From an uncultured Bacteroidota bacterium (GTDB lineage Bacteria > Bacteroidota > Ignavibacteria > Palsa-1295), in the NCBI GenBank assembly GCA_963702215.1, contig OY969726.1:1443050-1507049 (forward strand): a stretch of DNA of 64,000 nt. The letters run 5' to 3'. The notes beneath the pieces were generated by a model. The model ran no database searches and was not told where the DNA came from. It worked only from the letters and a program-made list of their open reading frames with translations. Within the stretch, counting starts at the first letter, position 1; the number at the start of each line of letters is the position of its first letter. Both the position numbers and the translations under genes were made by a program. Shown here one piece after another: positions 6,111-64,000 of this stretch.

Positions 6111-7286
6111 ATGAAAATTCCATTAAGCTATAGTTTCCGTTCCCTCTGGACGCGCAAGCTGACGACCATTCTCACGATCGCCGGTGTGGCGCTCGTCGCC
6201 TTCGTGTTTACCGCCGTGCTCATGCTTGCCAACGGCGTGAAGAACACGATGGTCGCTACCGGCTCGGCGGATAACGCGATCGTGCTCAGAAAATCCGCGG
6301 AAAGCGAAACGCTGAGCATCATTACGTTCGACGAAGCAGATGTGATCGGCACGCAGCCGGAGATCGCGCTGGCAAGTGATGGCAAGCCGCTGATGTCCAA
6401 AGAGGTGCTTACCCTTATCAATTTGCAGAAGCATGGCGCGAACCCGAACGACCTTTCGAACGTGACGGTGCGCGGCGTTACGCCGGATGGAATCTTACTC
6501 CGTCCGCAGGTGAAATTGACGCACGGAAGAATGTTCAACTTTGGCGCTTCGGAACTAATTGTAGGCAATCAAATCGCCGATCGTTTCGATGGCATGGCGA
6601 TTGGCAACTCGATAAAATTTGCGGGACGCGAGTGGAAGATCGTCGGCCACTTCAATGCGGGCCGCAGCGGATTCGCTTCGGACATTTGGGGCGATCAGAA
6701 CCAAATTCTTCAGGCCTTCAACCGGCAGGCGTATTCTTCGGTGGTAATGCGACTGAAAGATCCCAAAGATTTCGCCGCGCTCAAAGCTCGTTTCGATAGC
6801 GATCCGCGCCTGAACGAACTCAAGATCGAGCCGGAAAAGCAATTCTATGCCGAGCAATCGGAAACGCTCGCGAACTTTATCCGAATTTTGGGAATCGTCA
6901 TCACCGTGATTTTCAGCTTTGGAGCGATGATTGGGGCGATGATTACGATGTACGCATCGGTGGCCAATCGCACGGTGGAAATCGGCACGTTGCGCGCGCT
7001 TGGCTTCCAGCGCCGAAGCGTGCTCAGCGCATTCCTGATCGAATCACTCTTTATTGCATTGCTCGGCGCCGGAGTGGGGCTTGTCTGCGCAACGCTTCTT
7101 TCGTTCCTCACCATCTCCACCACCGATTTTAGTTCCTTCGCCGAAATTGCGTTCGGCTTCACGATGACAGGAGGCATCGTCCTTGCCACGCTGATCTTTG
7201 CGATCGTGATGGGCTTCGTCGGCGGATTCCTTCCCAGTTTTCGCGCCGCGCGGCTGGATATCGTGAATGCACTACGATCGGCGTAA
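6111..7286 (+). CDS. ABC transporter permease (MacB/FtsX family)
   Basis: RTVEIGTLRALGF; ends FLPSFRAARLDIVNALRSA. Confidence 0.93.
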   Translation: MKIPLSYSFRSLWTRKLTTILTIAGVALVAFVFTAVLMLANGVKNTMVATGSADNAIVLRKSAESETLSIITFDEADVIGTQPEIALASDGKPLMSKEVLTLINLQKHGANPNDLSNVTVRGVTPDGILLRPQVKLTHGRMFNFGASELIVGNQIADRFDGMAIGNSIKFAGREWKIVGHFNAGRSGFASDIWGDQNQILQAFNRQAYSSVVMRLKDPKDFAALKARFDSDPRLNELKIEPEKQFYAEQSETLANFIRILGIVITVIFSFGAMIGAMITMYASVANRTVEIGTLRALGFQRRSVLSAFLIESLFIALLGAGVGLVCATLLSFLTISTTDFSSFAEIAFGFTMTGGIVLATLIFAIVMGFVGGFLPSFRAARLDIVNALRSA

Positions 7287-7839: not shown

Positions 7840-7914
7840 GGCTTCGTCGGCGGATTCCATCCCAGCTTCCGCGCCGCGCGGCTGGATATTGTGAATGCGC
7901 TACGGTCGGCTTAG
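7840..7914 (+). repeat. Diverged copy 2 of the permease 3' end (7212-7286)
   Basis: 67/75 nt identical; 7 of the 8 differences are synonymous. Confidence 0.95.
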
Positions 7915-9764: not shown

Positions 9765-9858
9765 AAATTTTTCTCCCATTAAAAAACCGTCATGGAAAAA
9801 TCGCAACTCCAAAGATAACCCAAAGAATCCCGGGCCGGCTAGAAAATCTGCACCACCC

Positions 9859-32867: not shown

Positions 32868-33557
32868 ATGGTAAAACTGAGATTAGCACGTCAGGGACGC
32901 AAGAAAGTCCCGATTTATAGAATTGTAGCCACCGACAGCCGTTCGCGGCGGGATGGGCGATTTATCGAATCGCTCGGGCAATACCGGCCTTCGAATGAGC
33001 CGGGGCAGAAAGTCCAGATCAAGGAAGACCGGGCGCTGTATTGGCTCGGCGTTGGCGCCCAGCCGACGGATACGGTCCGCTCCCTGCTTTCGGGCGAGGG
33101 AATTTTACTCAAGTGGCATCTCGAAAAGAAGAAGATCGAGCCGGCCCGTGCCTCCGAAATTTTTACGACGTGGAAGTCGAAGCGCGACGAAAAGCTAACC
33201 GCGAATATGGATGCGAAGGCCGCCGCCCTCCTGTCCCGCGAGGAAGCGAAGCGTAAAGCGGCCGCGAAGAAGGCTGCGGAAGCTGCGACAGCGGAAGCTG
33301 CGACAGCGGAAGCTGCAGCGGTAGCTGCTGCCGAGGCCGCCGCAGCTGTGGTTCCCGAAGCTACGGTTCCCGAAGCTACGGTTCCCGAAGCCGCAGTTCC
33401 CGAAGTTGCGGTTCCCGAAGTTGCGGTTCCCGAAGCTGCGGCAGTGGCAGAAGCTACGGTCGAAGCCGCTGCCGCGGAAGTTCCAGCGGAAGCTGCGCAG
33501 GCAGTCGGGGAACCCTCCGGCACGGAGGCGCGTCCCGCCGAGCGTGTGGAAGGATAA
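32868..33557 (+). CDS. rpsP: 30S ribosomal protein S16 with long Ala/Glu/Pro tail
   Basis: [34 protein letters not shown]. Confidence 0.95.
33280..33440 (+). repeat. 15-bp coding tandem repeats (AATAE x2; [10 protein letters not shown] x6) in the rpsP tail
   Basis: GTTCCCGAAG(C/T)T(A/G)CG units visible. Confidence 0.85.
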
Positions 33558-51680: not shown

Positions 51681-52187
51681 GGTTTGTGGATAATTTGAAT
51701 AAGTTGTGGAACAATTACTTCGGTTCTGGCGCCAATCGAGATCGGCACGCCGTCAGTCTGGTTACAAATTTAACTAAATTGTTACCGCGCTGCGCCAAAT
51801 CCAATTTTTCGGGCGCAAATTACCCGCCAACACGCCCGGTCCCAGAAAATCCAGAATATTTCAGATTCCTTCTCCGATCTTCCCCACTCGCCCGTCACTA
51901 CGAGCGAAGCCAAAAAATCTCCCCATTTTCCCCGGGCCTTAAAAAAATCCCAGAAAACTACTTTTTATAGTGCGCGCGCGTTTGTGCTTCATGAACTATG
52001 CCTTTTGCGTTCCATTTTCGCCGTTTTTTAAAAAGAGGTAACTTTTTACCCGCTTTTTTGAGGGGTGGTTTTGAAAAGGCGAGAAAGCTATGATTCTATA
52101 AGAATGGCACCGAAAATAGACTATCATCGGCGGGATGACGTTGCGGCGGCGGGAAGCTTTTGGGAAGAGCGAAGGCGCGCGAACTAA

Positions 52188-52448
52188 CTACGCCGCAACA
52201 ACATCAACATGGGCGGCATAACCAAGTTCGTGCAAAATGGCTTCGCAATCTTCCCACGTGAGTCCAAACGGACGAACGTCCGCAAGACCGACTTTGCCAA
52301 GCGCATCCGCGAGCGTGCGCGAGGCGAGTGGTTCGAATTCGCCTTCCATAATAGCATTTTCGGCCCAGTCCACGAGTTGCGCAAGCGTGATCTCGTGATG
52401 TAAATAAGCGGCAATTTTTTCTGCGGCCGCGCGCTTGGTAATTCTCAT
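52188..52448 (-). CDS. Hypothetical protein (putative antitoxin/immunity)
   Basis: 86 aa; YLHHEITLAQLVDWAENAIME; coupled to the upstream gene. Confidence 0.7.
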   Translation of the reverse strand: MRITKRAAAEKIAAYLHHEITLAQLVDWAENAIMEGEFEPLASRTLADALGKVGLADVRPFGLTWEDCEAILHELGYAAHVDVVAA

Positions 52449-52450
52449 GA

Positions 52451-52687
52451 TCAAACTTTTTGGTGCCCCGTGTCAACCGGGTACTTCTGATGCACTTCTA
52501 CTAACTCGTTTTGGCCGTTGTAAATTTCCTGCCGGAACGTGAGCGTCGCTTCATCCCCATCGACTTCTTTGATGTAAGCCGCGTGCCATCCATGCCGGCC
52601 TTCGATTCCTAAATGATAGCGCCTCCCGCCATTCGGCAGATCTTCCCATTCATCGAACTTTCGCTCGTTTTGCTCAAGCTTGTTCAC
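52451..52687 (-). CDS. Hypothetical protein (putative toxin)
   Basis: 78 aa; GGRRY...GRHGW...YIKEVD...HQKYPVDTGH. Confidence 0.7.
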   Translation of the reverse strand: MNKLEQNERKFDEWEDLPNGGRRYHLGIEGRHGWHAAYIKEVDGDEATLTFRQEIYNGQNELVEVHQKYPVDTGHQKV

Positions 52688-52847
52688 AATCCTTCTCTCC
52701 TAACACTCAGCGAGACATTTTAACTCATTGTTGCGAGCCACCGCGGCATGATGACGAGCGACCCCAAATGCCCCACCATCGGCGGGACGATGGTCGTCGT
52801 GGCGGCGTGAAGCTTTTGGGTGGGGCAAAGGCGCGATGAGGTATAAA

Positions 52848-58698: not shown

Positions 58699-59115
58699 TT
58701 AGATTCGCATCAAGAGCTGGAATCCTGCCTGCTCGAGGTGATGATCGGATGTCAGGGCTTCCGATATACCTCGCCCGCGCATGATCAGCATGGAAGCGCA
58801 ATCTGTAAGGCTCCATTCCTTGTCGGCGGAGCGTTTAAAAAGTTGGACTGCCGCTTGCAAAAGATGGTCCGTGTCCGGAATTACAAGGATTTCTTGGTTG
58901 GAGTGAGTGCGTTGCCAAATCTCGGCAACTTCCAAACGAGTATTGGCTCCAACTCCGCTTGCAAAATTGAGGAATTCGATAAGCACAAGGTCGGACGTTA
59001 CGATTAACACGGAATCGGCTTCGGTTAGCGTCCAGTGTTTTGCGAAACGGCGGAGCGAATCCTTTTCGAATTGCAGCGCAACCCAATACGCGGTGTCTGC
59101 GAAGACTTCTCTCAC
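58699..59115 (-). CDS. PIN/VapC toxin
   Basis: VFADTAYW, LIEFLN, SLTDCAS, TSDHHL; GTG start overlaps the antitoxin stop. Confidence 0.9.
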   Translation of the reverse strand: MREVFADTAYWVALQFEKDSLRRFAKHWTLTEADSVLIVTSDLVLIEFLNFASGVGANTRLEVAEIWQRTHSNQEILVIPDTDHLLQAAVQLFKRSADKEWSLTDCASMLIMRGRGISEALTSDHHLEQAGFQLLMRI

Positions 59116-59330
59116 TCGCTGACCTTTGGGTGGCCGTAGAGGTAATGATCCACGTTTAGCGCGCCATCGACCGGGATCCGTGCTCGTTCTTCGGATGGGA
59201 TGCGTTCCCAAGCATCCGACATGCGTTCCATTAAATCTCGCAAGGAGTTGTTTGGCTTTGCGTACGTTCGGCGTTGGCTTTTCCCTGTTCTGCCCTTCAC
59301 CGCATTTTTTGTTTTAGGAACTGGTTTCAT
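59112..59330 (-). CDS. Cognate antitoxin
   Basis: PVDGALNVDHYLYGHPK C-terminal motif. Confidence 0.8.
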   Translation of the reverse strand: MKPVPKTKNAVKGRTGKSQRRTYAKPNNSLRDLMERMSDAWERIPSEERARIPVDGALNVDHYLYGHPKVSE

Positions 59331-59482
59331 ACATCTGCCCTAACATTAATTTAATTGCTTCGTTTCAGGTTGCCTGGTCTCGCGGACTGACGTGAGGGCT
59401 TCGTGAAGCAAATCCTCGAAGTTTCGCCATGTGATTGCTTTTTAGTGATGGATGGGTTTGAATTCCGAGAGATACTACGGCG

Positions 59483-59920
59483 CTATTCTCGAACGCCAGA
59501 GATGGACAAAAGGCTGTCTCCACGCGCGGTGGTATAATTCAGCGTATCTGCATTCGCTGATAGCCAGCATTCTCCGTGTTCATCTGTATCACCATAGAGG
59601 CTGCTGCTGTCTCTTACGTTGAAGTCATGGAGGTACATATATCCACAGGGACTGGTCGCATCCCAGGTAATCACAAAAGGGCCGTTGGGGATGAGGGATA
59701 AAACTTCCCGAGTAGAATCATTCCTAACCGATCCCGTCAGGAATGTATCGGCGTTTATAATCTTGCATGTGCAAGGAGTAGCGGAGTTCCCGAGCGTCCA
59801 TGTTCCGACAAAAGCGCCGGGTGCCACGGTTGCGACCCACCCAGAAGGAGGCGGGCACGAGTTATTTGGAGAGCTGCATCCAACGAGAAGTGTGAATAAG
59901 ATAGCGAAACAGATTTTCAT
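59483..59920 (-). CDS. Hypothetical Cys-rich lipoprotein
   Basis: Lipobox LVGC. Confidence 0.65.
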   Translation of the reverse strand: MKICFAILFTLLVGCSSPNNSCPPPSGWVATVAPGAFVGTWTLGNSATPCTCKIINADTFLTGSVRNDSTREVLSLIPNGPFVITWDATSPCGYMYLHDFNVRDSSSLYGDTDEHGECWLSANADTLNYTTARGDSLLSISGVRE

Positions 59921-59989
59921 GCCATTTGGAGAACAGAGGAAATCTCGCATGATTCCCGCTTGGGTGACTACATTAAGCTCGGCATCTCA

Positions 59990-60255
59990 ATCCCCACCAC
60001 CTCCCCGTATCGGTGCTTCGGGTACCAATTCATCCCCCGCCTTTCCGGCGTGAGATCGAAAACGTTCCAGACAGGCCAGATGCTATCGACGTGGCGCTCA
60101 TTCTGTCCGGGATCGGCTGGAGCGAAAAGCAATTCCGTGGCATACCGATGAAAAATTCCGTCCAGCGGCGCAACTCGATCTCTTCTTCGAGTAATGCGCC
60201 CCTTGCGGCGCGATAATTGTCGTTCTCGCTGAGAAAGCGTTTGGTACTGAGCGTG
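59990..60255 (-). pseudogene. Internally deleted DUF899-family gene remnant
   Basis: N-terminus RFLSENDNYRAARGALLEEEIELRR fused out of frame to C-terminus YATELLFAPADPGQNERHVDSIWPVWNVFDLTPE..WYPK. Confidence 0.7.
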
Positions 60256-60361
60256 AGTTTAAGAATTTCTTCGGTTTGTGATTATTTATGATCTTTAAAA
60301 ACACACAACTGAGGGAAAAAGATGTACGAATCACTTTGCAAAAATCTGCGTTTCGAATTCG

Positions 60362-60556
60362 ATGAAGGGAATTCAATACGTCACTGATGATACGGGCGCG
60401 CGCGTTGCCGCGCTCGTCGATCTCGCGGAGTGGGGCGAGGAATGGCAGGACTTTCTCGATGGTATCGAAGCGGAAAGAGAGCCCAGGGAACCGAGCGTTC
60501 CGTGGCGCGAGCTGAGAGCCGAAATGGAAGAAGCTTCGCACATTGTACGAGCTTAA
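60362..60556 (+). CDS. Antitoxin
   Basis: IQYVTDDTGARVAALV...VPWRELRAE. Confidence 0.8.
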   Translation: MKGIQYVTDDTGARVAALVDLAEWGEEWQDFLDGIEAEREPREPSVPWRELRAEMEEASHIVRA

Positions 60557-60797
60557 ATTCACTCCTGCGGCTGTGCGGAATTGGCGAAAGCTCACGCTCC
60601 TTGCTCAACAACAGATCGCGCCTCATCTCGACCGGCTCGCGATAGATCCACGGCCGCCAGGTGTAAAAAAACTGAAGGGATTCCAAAAACTATATAGAAT
60701 TCGCACCGGGGATTACAGAGTGATTTACGAGATCGATGATTCATCGAAAGCCATTTGGATTACGAAGGTAATGGATCGCAAAGATGAATATTCCTGA
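60543..60797 (+). CDS. RelE/StbE family toxin
   Basis: DPRPPGVKKLKG...YRIRTGDYRVIYEI. Confidence 0.92.
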   Translation: MYELKFTPAAVRNWRKLTLLAQQQIAPHLDRLAIDPRPPGVKKLKGFQKLYRIRTGDYRVIYEIDDSSKAIWITKVMDRKDEYS

Positions 60798-60800
60798 ACG

Positions 60801-61289
60801 ATGATTTTTTCCATCCTCAAATCCCTCGCCTTAGGCGTGTGGCTCGGCGCGCTGATTATGCTGGGCTATGCCGTGGCCGGGCCGATCTTTCAGCAATCTC
60901 CCTCGAAAACGCTGGCGGGAACGATTAATGGCGTCATCCTCGGACGCATGAATAATATCGAATGGGTCTGTTGGGCGGTAGCGATCGCGTGCTCAATTAT
61001 CCTTCTGATCTTAAATTGGACCAGCGCGCGCGGGCTTCGCATCGCCGAACTGGCGATCCTTTGCGTTGCCGGTGTGCTGTTGTGGTTCTATTCCATTCGC
61101 ATCACCGGAAGAATGGATACGCTCCGCGCGACGATCGGCGATTTCGATCATCCGAAGCAAACGACCGAATATGTGCAGGCGAAATCCGAATTCGACACGC
61201 TCCATCATCGCTATACTGCGCTCGTGGGAACGAATATGATCTTCCTGCTCGGAGCGTTTACGATTTCGATGCTTCTTACGCGGAAATAA
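60801..61289 (+). CDS. DUF4149/TMEM205-like membrane protein
   Basis: GVWLGALI...AGPIF...FDTLHHRY. Confidence 0.75.
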   Translation: MIFSILKSLALGVWLGALIMLGYAVAGPIFQQSPSKTLAGTINGVILGRMNNIEWVCWAVAIACSIILLILNWTSARGLRIAELAILCVAGVLLWFYSIRITGRMDTLRATIGDFDHPKQTTEYVQAKSEFDTLHHRYTALVGTNMIFLLGAFTISMLLTRK

Positions 61290-61918
61290 TGCCGGGCTTG
61301 CGGTTCGCGGAACTTGAGGCGCTCGTCCAGCGCGATGAAGCGGTTCGTGCCGAACTCGTTGAACGGGGAGAACTCTTCGGCGGCTATCATCCGGAGATGG
61401 AAGCGTTGCATACTGCGAATGGCCGGACGCTTGAAGTGTTGATAGACCAATTCGGCTGGCCGGATGAAGCCCAGGATGGCGTGGCCGCCTGCGCGAATGC
61501 TTGGTTGATAGTCCAGCACGCTATTTCGCTCCCAAGCCTTCAACGCAAAGTGTTGGCGTTGCTTAAAATGAATCCCGCTGGTTGCACGCCGCCCCAGCTT
61601 GCCATGCTCGAAGACCGGACGCTCGTTTTTTCGGGCAAGATGCAAAGGTATGGAACTCAATTCGATTGGGATTCAAATGGCGAATTAAATCCGTTCCCAA
61701 TCGAAGATGCGGGGCATGTCGATATTCGGCGGACCGGGGTTGGGTTACCCCCGCTAAAGGAAACTTCCGCCCGTCTCCGCGAACGGGCCGAGAAGGAGCG
61801 TGACAAGCCGCCGCCAGATTTCTTGGAGTATGTGCGAGGCAGAGAAGAGTGGATGATTCGCGCCGGATGGATTCGAGAGCGTTCAGAAATCGATGCCGCC
61901 TATCGCGCTCACGAATAG
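61289..61918 (+). CDS. DUF6624-like protein
   Basis: FGWP, AWLIVQHA, AMLEDR, QRYGTQ. Confidence 0.8.
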   Translation: MPGLRFAELEALVQRDEAVRAELVERGELFGGYHPEMEALHTANGRTLEVLIDQFGWPDEAQDGVAACANAWLIVQHAISLPSLQRKVLALLKMNPAGCTPPQLAMLEDRTLVFSGKMQRYGTQFDWDSNGELNPFPIEDAGHVDIRRTGVGLPPLKETSARLRERAEKERDKPPPDFLEYVRGREEWMIRAGWIRERSEIDAAYRAHE

Positions 61919-61950
61919 CGCACCCCCTTCGCGAGTTTGTTAAACTTGAA
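61909..61950 (-). repeat. Most decayed copy of the ABC-2 permease 3' end
   Basis: Encodes FKFNKLAKGVRYS* versus native FKLSEIAKWVRYS*. Confidence 0.75.
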
Positions 61951-61964
61951 TCCTTTATCCAAAT

Positions 61965-62390
61965 TTATCCTCGCTCTGGTGGCAATAGCACCGGCAGTGG
62001 CTCATTTCGATTTCGGCGATAGATAAGAAAGTCTGAATTGAGCGTAAGAATTGGCGCGTCGGGATACAGCTCCGAAAGTTGGACGAGACACGCATCCGCG
62101 AAGGACATTGGCACATCGACGTAACGGGTGAGAAGTTTGCGAATGGCATCTCGATTCTGAATATAACTAAACGGAAAGAGCAGAGGAGCCTCCTCAACGA
62201 AAGAGAGAAGCCCGGAAATGTCCAGCGACGCTCTTAAGAGCAGAAAAATAGCTTCCGTCAGGACTGCCTCGCAGGTTAGGAATGCAGCCGAAGAACTACG
62301 CAACTCATTCGATGCCCACGCATGGAATGGGTCGTTGCGATCAAGTGCTGCAATCAGAGGGCCAGTGTCGAAAATAAGATAAGGGCTCAC
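61965..62390 (-). CDS. PIN/VapC toxin
   Basis: IFDTGPLIA, TCEAVLTEA, MSFADACLV, TLNSDF. Confidence 0.9.
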   Translation of the reverse strand: MSPYLIFDTGPLIAALDRNDPFHAWASNELRSSSAAFLTCEAVLTEAIFLLLRASLDISGLLSFVEEAPLLFPFSYIQNRDAIRKLLTRYVDVPMSFADACLVQLSELYPDAPILTLNSDFLIYRRNRNEPLPVLLPPERG

Positions 62391-62587
62391 TTGCCAAAGT
62401 TTTCCATATACTTCGGGTTGGTCGAAAGATCGCCCGGCCCATCGAGGGAGCCCAGCAAGTGTTTGATTCGATCGAAGGGCGTATCAACCCTAAGCGGTGA
62501 TTTCCCATTTGATTTCCGAAGCGATGATTTCCTCCGCACTGCCGGATTGCGCTTCCGCATTCCTGGAGATTTCGTTTTTGTTTCCAT
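62387..62587 (-). CDS. Cognate antitoxin
   Basis: LGSLDGPGDLSTNPKYMENFG motif. Confidence 0.8.
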   Translation of the reverse strand: METKTKSPGMRKRNPAVRRKSSLRKSNGKSPLRVDTPFDRIKHLLGSLDGPGDLSTNPKYMENFGK

Positions 62588-62630
62588 GCTATCAAAAAGG
62601 CAGGGATTTCTGGGTTCGTTCCCCGTTGAG

Positions 62631-62677
62631 ATAATTTGCGAATAGCACACCCACTTCGCGATCTCGTCGAGTTTGAT
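62631..62677 (-). repeat. Diverged copy of the ABC-2 permease 3' end
   Basis: Encodes IKLDEIAKWVCYS; ACCCACTTCGCGATCTCG identical to the native end. Confidence 0.85.
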
Positions 62678-62679
62678 AT

Positions 62680-62901
62680 TTATGCGGCTTTCGCAAGCGT
62701 TCCCACACCTTCGAGCGTTATACGGCGGAGCGTGATGACGTTGCCGAATCGTTCTTGAGCGTCTAACACTTCGATTCCAGCGACCAAGCCATTTGCATCA
62801 TAGTCAATGGCAATGCCTTCGGCAATATGCCTTGTCGTAACGGTCGTATCCTTGAAAATAATGCTCAGGGCATCCACCGATGGATCGTACGAGATTGTCA
62901 T
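62680..62901 (-). CDS. DUF2283 domain protein (orphan)
   Basis: ISYDPSVDALSI...IDYDANGLVAGIEVLDA. Confidence 0.88.
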   Translation of the reverse strand: MTISYDPSVDALSIIFKDTTVTTRHIAEGIAIDYDANGLVAGIEVLDAQERFGNVITLRRITLEGVGTLAKAA

Positions 62902-62919
62902 AATACCGTTTGGAATAAT

Positions 62920-64000
62920 TTACGAATACCTTACCCACTTCGCGATCTCGCTCAACTTGAATTTCTTGCCATACATGAGAATGCCTACGCGATAAATTCT
63001 CGCGGCGACCCACAGGCAGCCGAAAAAGGTTCCGATCATGAGCACGACTGCGAGCGCGATTTGCCACCATGGTGGGGTTTCGGTGAAAATGCGGCCAAGC
63101 ATTAATATTGGCGAGAAAAATGGGACGAGTGAAAGGATGACGCTCTTCGTGCTCGATGGATTCCGAATAATTCCCTGCAATAAGATGAATGGAATGACGA
63201 GCAGCATCACGACCGGCATGGCGATTTGCTGCGCACCGCTCGCCGATTCCGACGTCGAACCTACCGCCGCATAGAGCGTGGCATAAATTAAAAATCCCAG
63301 CGCGAAGAACAGAACGAAATACAGGAACATAAAGGGAGAGATCGAAGGCAGAATCCCGGAACCCAGCATGGCGCTTGCAGCCGTGAGGCCGACGGTCACC
63401 AGCAAGGCGAGCATGATCGCCCATACGCCGACCTGAATAAGTGCCGCGCCGGCAACGCCTACCACTTTGCCAACCAAAAGCTGGAATGGCCGCACGCTCG
63501 ATGCTGTAATTTCGATCACGCGGCTCGATTTTTCTTCGATCACGCTGTTCATAATTTGCGTGCCATAAAGCACCAACGTGAGATACAGCAGAAATGCCGT
63601 GACGAACGCCATAATCATTCCCGTATCGCCGCTGTCTTTTTCTTCCGAGCCTGCCTCGAGTTTCACCGTCTCGATATGCACACCGGATTCCACGTTAGTC
63701 ACCAAGCCTGGATCGATACCGCGCGCGCGAAGTTTTGCGTCGCGCACGGCATCGCGATAGGATTCCTTCAGGAAGGATATCGTTGTAAAATCACTTGGGT
63801 TGTGTAGCTTGATAGTTGCCGTCGAGGCGCTATCGCGAATGGCATTGGCCGGAATCACCATGTATCCCGTGAGCGATTTACTTTCGACGAGTTTCGCGAG
63901 CGAATCCATCACATGCTGGCCGGGCGTTGCGTTCGAAAGCGTGACCTTGGTTTCTACCTGTTTCGAGAGGAAGTCCGTCGCAGTAGTTTTCGAGGCCTCG
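62920..64000 (-). CDS. ABC-2/NatB-like transporter permease (5'-truncated)
   Basis: SVIEEKSSRVIE, GKVVG, AARIYRVGILMYGK; frame open to the window edge. Confidence 0.9.
   Translation of the reverse strand, partial: EASKTTATDFLSKQVETKVTLSNATPGQHVMDSLAKLVESKSLTGYMVIPANAIRDSASTATIKLHNPSDFTTISFLKESYRDAVRDAKLRARGIDPGLVTNVESGVHIETVKLEAGSEEKDSGDTGMIMAFVTAFLLYLTLVLYGTQIMNSVIEEKSSRVIEITASSVRPFQLLVGKVVGVAGAALIQVGVWAIMLALLVTVGLTAASAMLGSGILPSISPFMFLYFVLFFALGFLIYATLYAAVGSTSESASGAQQIAMPVVMLLVIPFILLQGIIRNPSSTKSVILSLVPFFSPILMLGRIFTETPPWWQIALAVVLMIGTFFGCLWVAARIYRVGILMYGKKFKLSEIAKWVRYS

Follow-up and report, generated by a model that had tools for sequence, protein, structure and literature searches.

The 64,000-nucleotide (nt) stretch of contig OY969726.1 analysed here (the window), from an uncultured Bacteroidota bacterium of soil, breaks off inside a gene for an ABC-2 type transporter permease (62920–64000, minus strand) whose open reading frame (ORF) extends past the window end and encodes 426 amino acids (aa) in the genome. 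The last codons of this gene recur twice in the DNA behind it, with small genes lying between the copies, which raises the question of how a gene comes to be followed by a row of its own ends. We find that two cassettes were added serially behind the permease, a putative antitoxin/PIN pair first and an orphan DUF2283 gene second, and that each addition placed a new complete end before its cargo and pushed the older end downstream to decay, a 3'-end displacement or accretion. We regard it as highly probable that these serial insertions brought imported replacement ends with them.

A stack of gene ends behind the permease gene

Copy A (62920–62961, minus strand) comprises the last 13 codons of the permease and reads FKLSEIAKWVRYS*, the asterisk marking the stop codon; it is the working end of the ORF. 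Copy B (62636–62677, minus strand) reads IKLDEIAKWVCYS and carries CAA at the position of the stop together with three other amino-acid changes, and copy C (61909–61950, minus strand) reads FKFNKLAKGVRYS*. These three copies had been claimed in an earlier reading made from the letters alone (the sequence-only reading), and their positions were verified on the minus strand. A repeat search placed all three in one family, A and C being 78% and B and C 71% identical over 41 nt. The repeat between A and B is longer, 75% over 60 nt (62910–62969 and 62626–62685, minus strand), and takes in some 10–14 nt beyond the stop. When the permease end was slid along the 6.9 kb downstream, it matched at 32 of 42 bases at two places, exactly those of copies B and C, whereas in 200 mononucleotide shuffles of the same 6.9 kb the best match was 20–26 bases in 199 and 30 in one. 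The 42-nt similarities thus stand clear of shuffled sequence. The left boundaries of copies B and C lie at about −42 to −51 relative to the stop.

Permease orthologs were found in eight of 14 same-genus genomes searched (75–83% identity), and 4.5–7.6 kb downstream of each was compared. At one of these eight loci, that of genome G012, the permease and the gene for a DUF6624 protein stand directly tail to tail with no cargo between them, the empty site that the sequence-only reading had proposed to look for in relatives. The DUF6624 stop codon (TAG) of G012 falls on the Tyr codon of the permease, which is the same overlap seen at copy C, and a 118-nt stretch across the G012 junction is colinear with copy C and the DNA flanking it. 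Every one of the eight orthologs has the ending FKLSEI[AV]KWV[RK]Y[ST]*, a peptide that is invariant among them save for two conservative changes in genome G013 and the final S or T; copy C departs from it by five amino-acid changes, which lie outside the stretch that it shares with the DUF6624 gene. Because the empty site of G012 overlaps and aligns exactly as copy C does, copy C is, on this alignment, the retired ancestral permease end, now a fossil of which the DUF6624 gene still makes use of the final 10 nt. Copies B and C are both retired ends, since they carry amino-acid changes, and in B a lost stop, in an otherwise conserved peptide.

The silent sites point in the same direction. Copies A and C differ silently in the Val, Arg and stop codons, and at these three positions copy C has the G012 states (GTG, CGC and TGA) while copy A has GTA, AGG and TAA; two of the eight relatives share AGG, and none has GTA or TAA. 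It had been expected that the end at an empty site would lie nearer the distal copy than the current end, and G012 indeed matches C and not A at these positions. Together with the colinearity and the identical DUF6624 overlap, this bears out the proposal that the distal copy is the ancestral gene end. At this locus C is the original end, B came with the toxin-antitoxin (TA) pair and A, on our reading, with the DUF2283 cassette.

One further permease-end fossil was detected among the relatives, in genome G002 (locus L036), where a 35/42 match lies 88 nt past the working end with its left boundary at −56. The two are parted only by this 88-nt spacer, which holds two GC-rich hairpins, a T run and no cargo gene, and the fossil may have been left behind when cargo was lost or may represent a minimal insertion. 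With it, the left boundary of the permease end falls at about −42 to −56 in three fossils of two genomes. At the permease loci of the other six relatives the genes downstream are different, and no fossil reaches 27/42.

Displaced gene ends across the genome and the genus

The sequence-only reading had pointed to a second such stack in the window and had supposed a general process in this lineage. This second stack (locus 1), behind a gene for an FtsX-type permease, proved to have the layout described: three copies, at 7212–7285, 7840–7913 and 9852–9925, with an antisense RelE-family pair and a FISUMP lipoprotein gene as cargo. The wider supposition is upheld by 17 curated loci in the genome and by fossils in other species.

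The window belongs to a single 3.58-Mb contig, and the relatives of this genome bear the names of Candidatus Kapaibacterium or Ignavibacteriota metagenome-assembled genomes. The genome was compared with itself by BLAST, with a crude longest-ORF greedy set as gene calls (no gene finder), and a gene of at least 120 aa was listed when its 3' end was repeated downstream within 8 kb. Of the 28 automatic candidates, five (cand1, 4, 8, 14 and 20) were judged to be tandem paralogs or internal repeats and six more (cand3, 6, 9, 10, 15 and 16) have a repeat that begins at or past the stop; these eleven were left aside. The 17 host genes retained carry displaced gene-end repeats; the weaker cases among them are cand17, 21, 22, 25 and 27, in which the fossil lies within another long predicted ORF or identity is low.

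At these 17 loci the repeats start 41–164 nt before the stop codon and end between −10 and +11 of it, with one reaching +66; they are 41–167 nt long and 69–100% identical, and no core is common to different loci. The cassettes measure 243–3073 nt and are filled almost wholly by small ORFs, and where this was read off, in co-oriented cassettes, the cargo stop lies 0–14 nt before the next copy. Host genes include those for GroEL, thioredoxin reductase (trxB), a mannose-1-phosphate guanylyltransferase-like protein (manC-like), a DNA methyltransferase, a radical SAM protein, the FtsX-type permease and the ABC-2 permease. Among the cargo are PIN and DUF2283 proteins, a RelE-family toxin, a protein matching 'addiction module antidote', the FISUMP lipoprotein and several small unnamed proteins; judging by sequence motifs, other cargo may be HigBA, BrnT, HicAB and Bro-N, and the partner of DUF2283 may be DUF4258. 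When a single symmetric automatic rule was applied to both ends of genes, 20 stop-anchored repeats were found versus five start-anchored ones (binomial p = 0.002).

Several of the same gene ends are occupied in relatives. The groEL 3' end carries fossils in four of nine related loci (G004, G001, G002 and, with two, G013), one further locus (G005) is ambiguous and four have none. Fossils of this genome, G004, G001 and G013 begin at −67 to −70 and that of G002 nominally at −78; their cargo differs. These comparisons mark the 3' end of groEL (genome positions 377651–380069, outside the window; L058, L200–L214) as a genus-wide hot spot for insertion. Behind the manC-like gene a fossil was found in one of 13 relatives' loci, the other 12 being empty; this fossil, in G012, has its left boundary at −69 as compared with −68 here, and its cargo is two different TA-like pairs. 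Taken with the permease fossils, these alignments indicate that each host gene keeps its own left boundary from genome to genome, with different cargo. No fossil was found at the trxB end in 14 relatives' loci or at the FtsX gene end of locus 1 in ten. In the closest relative of locus 1 (L106) the FtsX-type permease is directly convergent with the lipoprotein gene and the TA pair is absent, which is again an empty site.

We also asked how working ends and fossils differ from each other. Among the 14 working-end/fossil pairs that are at least 83% identical, the first, second and third codon positions account for 15, 16 and 67 differences, in 58 synonymous versus 32 non-synonymous codons. The third-position share of 67/98 (68%) compares with a rough expectation of about 44% for decay in place (binomial p = 1e-6). 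Six older pairs gave 44, 28 and 59 differences by codon position, compatible with added neutral decay. The groEL pair has five differing sites, all synonymous, and the locus-1 pair seven, six of them synonymous. The third-position excess therefore indicates that working end and fossil diverged as functional gene ends in different genomes. In keeping with this, the locus-1 fossil F1 is nearer than the working end to five of seven relatives, and a groEL fossil of G013 is an in-frame C-tail variant like the G002/G003 type, with PPM and then glycines. Across the loci, the codon statistics show the new ends to be imports: orthologous ends that came with the cassettes from related genomes and were not made in place. 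The same would hold for the permease locus, where the copies alone are too short and too decayed for the codon-position test and the silent-site pattern fits import.

A tract of foreign origin may be visible at locus 1. Analysis of informative sites in the alignment there puts a break at about columns 917–963 of 1176, beyond which this genome resembles locus L108 by 42 sites to 7 (before the break, 88 to 92); none of 300 permutations reached this value, which is the best of 21 pairs tested. The L108-like tract measures about 215–260 nt, three times longer than the 74-nt repeat, and is only suggestive of DNA from another lineage.

Possible routes of cassette movement

How might a cassette bring a gene end with it? 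We see an even chance that integrase-free homologous recombination drives the displacement of gene 3' ends. In such a scheme incoming DNA of a relative would recombine by ordinary RecA-type homologous recombination, with no dedicated integrase, using the conserved host gene as one arm and the short retired end that travels behind the cargo as the other; a single crossover of a cassette circle holding one gene end would give the same product. Pairing of the right arm with the recipient's working end would yield a stack and pairing with an existing fossil a swap of cargo, and recombination between two copies would remove the cargo and restore a clean empty site. Selection would keep a product only where host gene and promoter are both intact, whereas a duplication at the start side would presumably sever the gene from its promoter. 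This demand would be why the repeats reach the stop codon and why 3' ends predominate.

We favour homologous recombination because the genome has few tyrosine recombinases, copies A and B fold no better than shuffles, different loci have no core in common, the ends appear imported and the left boundaries are set per gene. A search of the whole genome with the IntI model (TIGR02249) gave six matches in three ORFs, the best at 84 bits versus a cut-off of 265 and none in the window; generic tyrosine recombinases are picked up by the same model in each of the 14 control genomes. By coordinates, the three tyrosine recombinase genes all lie farther than about 10 kb from the curated loci. The sequence-only reading had held that no fixed att site is involved, and this agrees with the finding that the repeats are each host gene's own end and that none of the three recombinases is an IntI. 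No integrase remnants are visible in the cassettes, in a search that did not extend to serine recombinases. As regards attC-like folding, A and B fold no better than shuffles (z = +1.08 and +1.06 on the minus strand, +0.49 and −0.59 on the plus strand; C, −1.8 and −2.0), as judged by z-scores and not by an attC covariance model. The genome encodes ComEC and DprA, which gives weak support to an uptake route; most control genomes have them too.

A number of observations weigh against this account. The scheme starts from an already duplicated end and does not explain the first duplication at each gene, and recombination over 40–160 nt at 75–90% identity is expected to be inefficient. The nearest cargo homologs in relatives lie behind different host genes, mostly with no flanking repeats: homologs of the PIN pair (59–78% identity) had no significant flanking repeats in four loci tested, homologs of the DUF2283 gene (58–81% identity) had none exceeding shuffles by more than 8 in eight loci, and those of a Bro-like gene had none in six of seven related loci, the seventh giving one weak 52-nt match. 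Cargo therefore also moves by a route independent of the host gene end. Among reads of three soil metagenomes, which are too sparse for such forms, there was no excised circle or junction read; the runs gave seven contigs (151–401 nt, at least 99% identical) on 60500–64000, none bridging a junction. On the side of import, the break at locus 1 is the only significant one of the 21 pairs, and three other pairs with L108 break nearby. The permease gene is mosaic, with breaks at about columns 300–370, and has no distinct imported 3' tract, its divergence being too high for finer resolution.

The homologous-recombination scheme can be extended to the organism as a whole. Tentatively, and as one possibility among several, Candidatus Kapaibacterium-like bacteria may run an integrase-free form of gene capture in which retired ends, acting as recombination sites built from the last 40–160 bases of the host gene itself, serve as portable homology arms, so that TA and other small cassettes could be gained, exchanged and lost behind dozens of housekeeping genes, groEL and trxB among them. 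In a bolder variant, an unrecognised enzyme may make the first cut and so give the per-gene left boundaries, which often start with CGAR. If gene capture of this kind is real, it would give small accessory genes, TA modules foremost, a simple and general way to settle at the ends of core genes and to pass between species with no mobile-element enzyme, which would explain part of the unexplained mobility of TA loci. The capture system would resemble an integron that needs no integrase. Retired ends would form a record of insertion order and, through their silent sites, of donor relatedness; they would flag hot spots of insertion, the end of groEL being one, and account for short 'pseudo-gene-end' matches and spurious ORFs annotated behind core genes.

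Of the alternatives, the one that survives best, and which we nonetheless consider somewhat unlikely, is that the cassettes are decayed site-specific elements, that is, remnants left by integrative and conjugative elements (ICEs), integrative and mobilizable elements (IMEs) or prophages that integrated in a gene 3' end, supplied a replacement for it (attL/attR) and have since lost integrase and transfer genes. Later elements would integrate at an att site holding the gene end, and TA genes would survive by resisting loss; in a variant, there may have been one specific recombinase per locus, from elements now gone. Such elements would equally predict imported ends, left boundaries set per gene across species, the 3' bias and TA cargo. 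They would, however, need at least 17 different target genes in a 3.6-Mb genome with three tyrosine recombinase genes, none of them near a stack, and the cassettes hold no visible integrase fragment (serine recombinases were not part of the search) and are trimmed to ORF boundaries at 243–3073 nt. Repeats of 41–167 nt with 69–100% identity and no common core also speak against decayed elements, as does the L108-like tract at locus 1, which is longer than the repeat.

A second alternative derives the repeats from long duplications of the target in place: a transposition-like or template-switching process would have inserted ORF-sized cassettes and duplicated 40–160 nt, with selection keeping only those events whose duplication reaches the stop codon. 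Most of the remaining points that count against imported ends are found here. The two manC-like copies are 100% identical over 68 nt and both carry a Glu codon (RDEAQ) found in none of 13 relatives, a pair that fits duplication in place or later gene conversion. About 14 nt past the stop are common to A and B, and two groEL fossils of G013 share about 12 nt past theirs. The same cargo families occur behind different host genes. A TA-like pair (52188–52454 and 52451–52687, minus strand) lies between direct repeats of about 70 nt (52109–52179 and 52761–52835, 73–83% identical) in a non-coding spacer between divergent genes, away from a gene end. Finally, seven of 19 fossil copies start with CGAR (CGAG or CGAA) versus a background of 9.7% (p = 0.0014), the motif having been picked after seeing the data; CGAG opens the groEL fossils of this genome, G002 and G013, and those of G004 and G001 align from AGAAGA. 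Against duplication in place, the third-position excess (67/98) cannot come from neutral decay of an identical copy, fossils are as near or nearer to orthologs than working ends are, the right boundary keeps within about 10 nt of the stop and does not spread into the spacer, and no transposase lies within or beside the cassettes. On balance we judge duplication in place improbable as the general explanation.

One could put the copies down to chance, or to an assembly that joined strain variants in tandem, in view of their shortness (about 42 nt, 71–78% identical) and of what the names of the relatives suggest is a metagenome-type assembly, whose joins the sparse public reads cannot confirm, but this is hardly credible given the 200-shuffle control, the colinearity of copy C with the relative's empty site, the same architecture in the independently assembled G002, G012, G013, G004 and G001 and the presumption that assembler loops cannot make diverged copies.

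The stacks resemble several known systems in part. Integron arrays consist of compact, mostly promoter-less ORF-sized cassettes, often with TA genes, placed head to tail behind a fixed point. As in integrons, each cassette here is followed by a site-like repeat of 40–160 nt right past the ORF stop; in contrast to integrons there is no IntI, and the repeats are the host gene's coding end and not attC. In the minimal mobile elements of Neisseria, transformation and homologous recombination swap the cassettes that lie between conserved flanking genes, with no dedicated enzymes; there both arms are full flanking genes and no gene end is known to be duplicated, unlike here. Cis-mobilizable elements (CIMEs) are decayed ICEs or IMEs moved by a cognate integrase, whereas here no integrase, no remnant of one and no shared core came to light, and the gene ends in use within one genome are many and unrelated.

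Besides CIME accretion, the closest parallel is the C-terminal displacement arrays of Rhs, contact-dependent inhibition (CDI) and type VI secretion system (T6SS) effector genes, as described, with citation of the Rhs literature, in PMC5361080. There, an incoming module, held by homology to the conserved upstream part of the gene, supplies a new 3' end and cargo and leaves the old end downstream as an orphan, and arrays grow as this is repeated; for T6SS effector/Rhs loci sequential 3'-end displacement was proposed, by homology-facilitated illegitimate recombination anchored in the conserved upstream part, and ordinary homologous recombination is also among the proposed routes (PMC5361080). Copies B and C are, in the same way, orphan old 3' ends kept downstream and homologous to the host gene. 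The differences are that the hosts here are housekeeping or transport genes (those for the ABC-2 permease, the FtsX-type permease, GroEL and TrxB) and not polymorphic toxins, that the displaced piece is the conserved last 40–160 nt and not a variable toxin tip, and that the new end encodes the same protein, with the cargo placed after the stop codon. The ABC-2 permease is not a polymorphic-toxin host with a variable tip and an immunity gene, its end being conserved in eight of eight relatives. The architecture is common to CIME accretion and 3'-end displacement and differs from them in the many ordinary genes used, the unchanged protein and the absence of a recombinase. A word search of open-access full texts found no description of gene-end repeats flanking TA cassettes at housekeeping genes, though such a paper may exist.

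Cargo genes and neighbours of the permease

As the sequence-only reading had it, the copies bracket first a DUF2283 gene and then a PIN TA pair, and the gene families are borne out by matches to PF10049 and PF01850. The DUF2283 gene (62680–62901, minus strand; 73 aa, PF10049), the cargo of the second cassette, is packed in very tightly, with its start 19 nt past the stop of the permease gene and its end 2 nt short of copy B. At all eight related loci inspected with a DUF2283 homolog, a coding sequence with a conserved C-terminal peptide (...VYTYYF) abuts the homolog, and an intact partner ORF of about 84–94 aa is called beside it in five of the eight. The DUF2283 gene of the window has no such partner and starts directly behind the permease end; it is the orphan half of a likely two-gene module.

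The cargo of the first cassette is a putative antitoxin gene (62387–62587, minus strand; 66 aa from METKTK) and a gene for a PIN-domain (VapC-like) toxin (61965–62390, minus strand; 141 aa), the two overlapping by 4 nt at the PIN start. The equivalent Met opens homologous pairs in five relatives, in support of the start assigned to the antitoxin, for which there was no family match in NCBIfam. The toxin matches PF01850, a domain also found on most of its homologs, and weakly TIGR00028, and its gene stops 14 nt before copy C. With a PIN toxin placed after a small overlapping gene, the predicted pair has the layout of a VapBC-like type II TA system.

On the far side of copy C lies the convergent DUF6624 gene (61289–61918, plus strand; PF20329), the native right-hand neighbour of the permease. 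Its stop codon (61916–61918) falls inside copy C (61909–61950), just as had been noted from the letters alone. A promoter and terminator scan of 61200–63200 gave counts at shuffle level, using a sigma-70 consensus that may not be that of this phylum. An alignment of the cassette across five genomes revealed nothing conserved outside the ORFs except about 12 nt of 5' leader. The cassettes hold no transposase-like ORF, an inverted-repeat search at their ends was empty, and the copies, at 71–78% identity, are not identical short duplications.

Beyond the DUF6624 gene, the gene content between it and an S41 peptidase gene (58699–60797) varies among relatives, and no flanking repeats were seen in this part of the window. 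A RelE-family pair located here (60362–60797) has a homolog directly behind the permease in G001 (84% identity), and a second PIN pair (58699–59330) is found directly behind the permease in G008 and beside a 162-aa membrane gene in G012.

Two other repeat arrangements were encountered. At genome positions 1158978–1162096 (L053), five copies of an element of about 100 nt lie downstream of 23S–5S rRNA genes, with small cassettes between them, some of which hold PIN-like pairs. We had considered these copies as 3' ends of 5S rRNA and set that assignment aside, only about 30 nt of each being 5S-like and joined to GC-rich palindromes. Within the window itself, a tandem array with a 15-nt repeat unit, detected as six 60-nt windows in register, occupies 33304–33438 within an apparent coding sequence.

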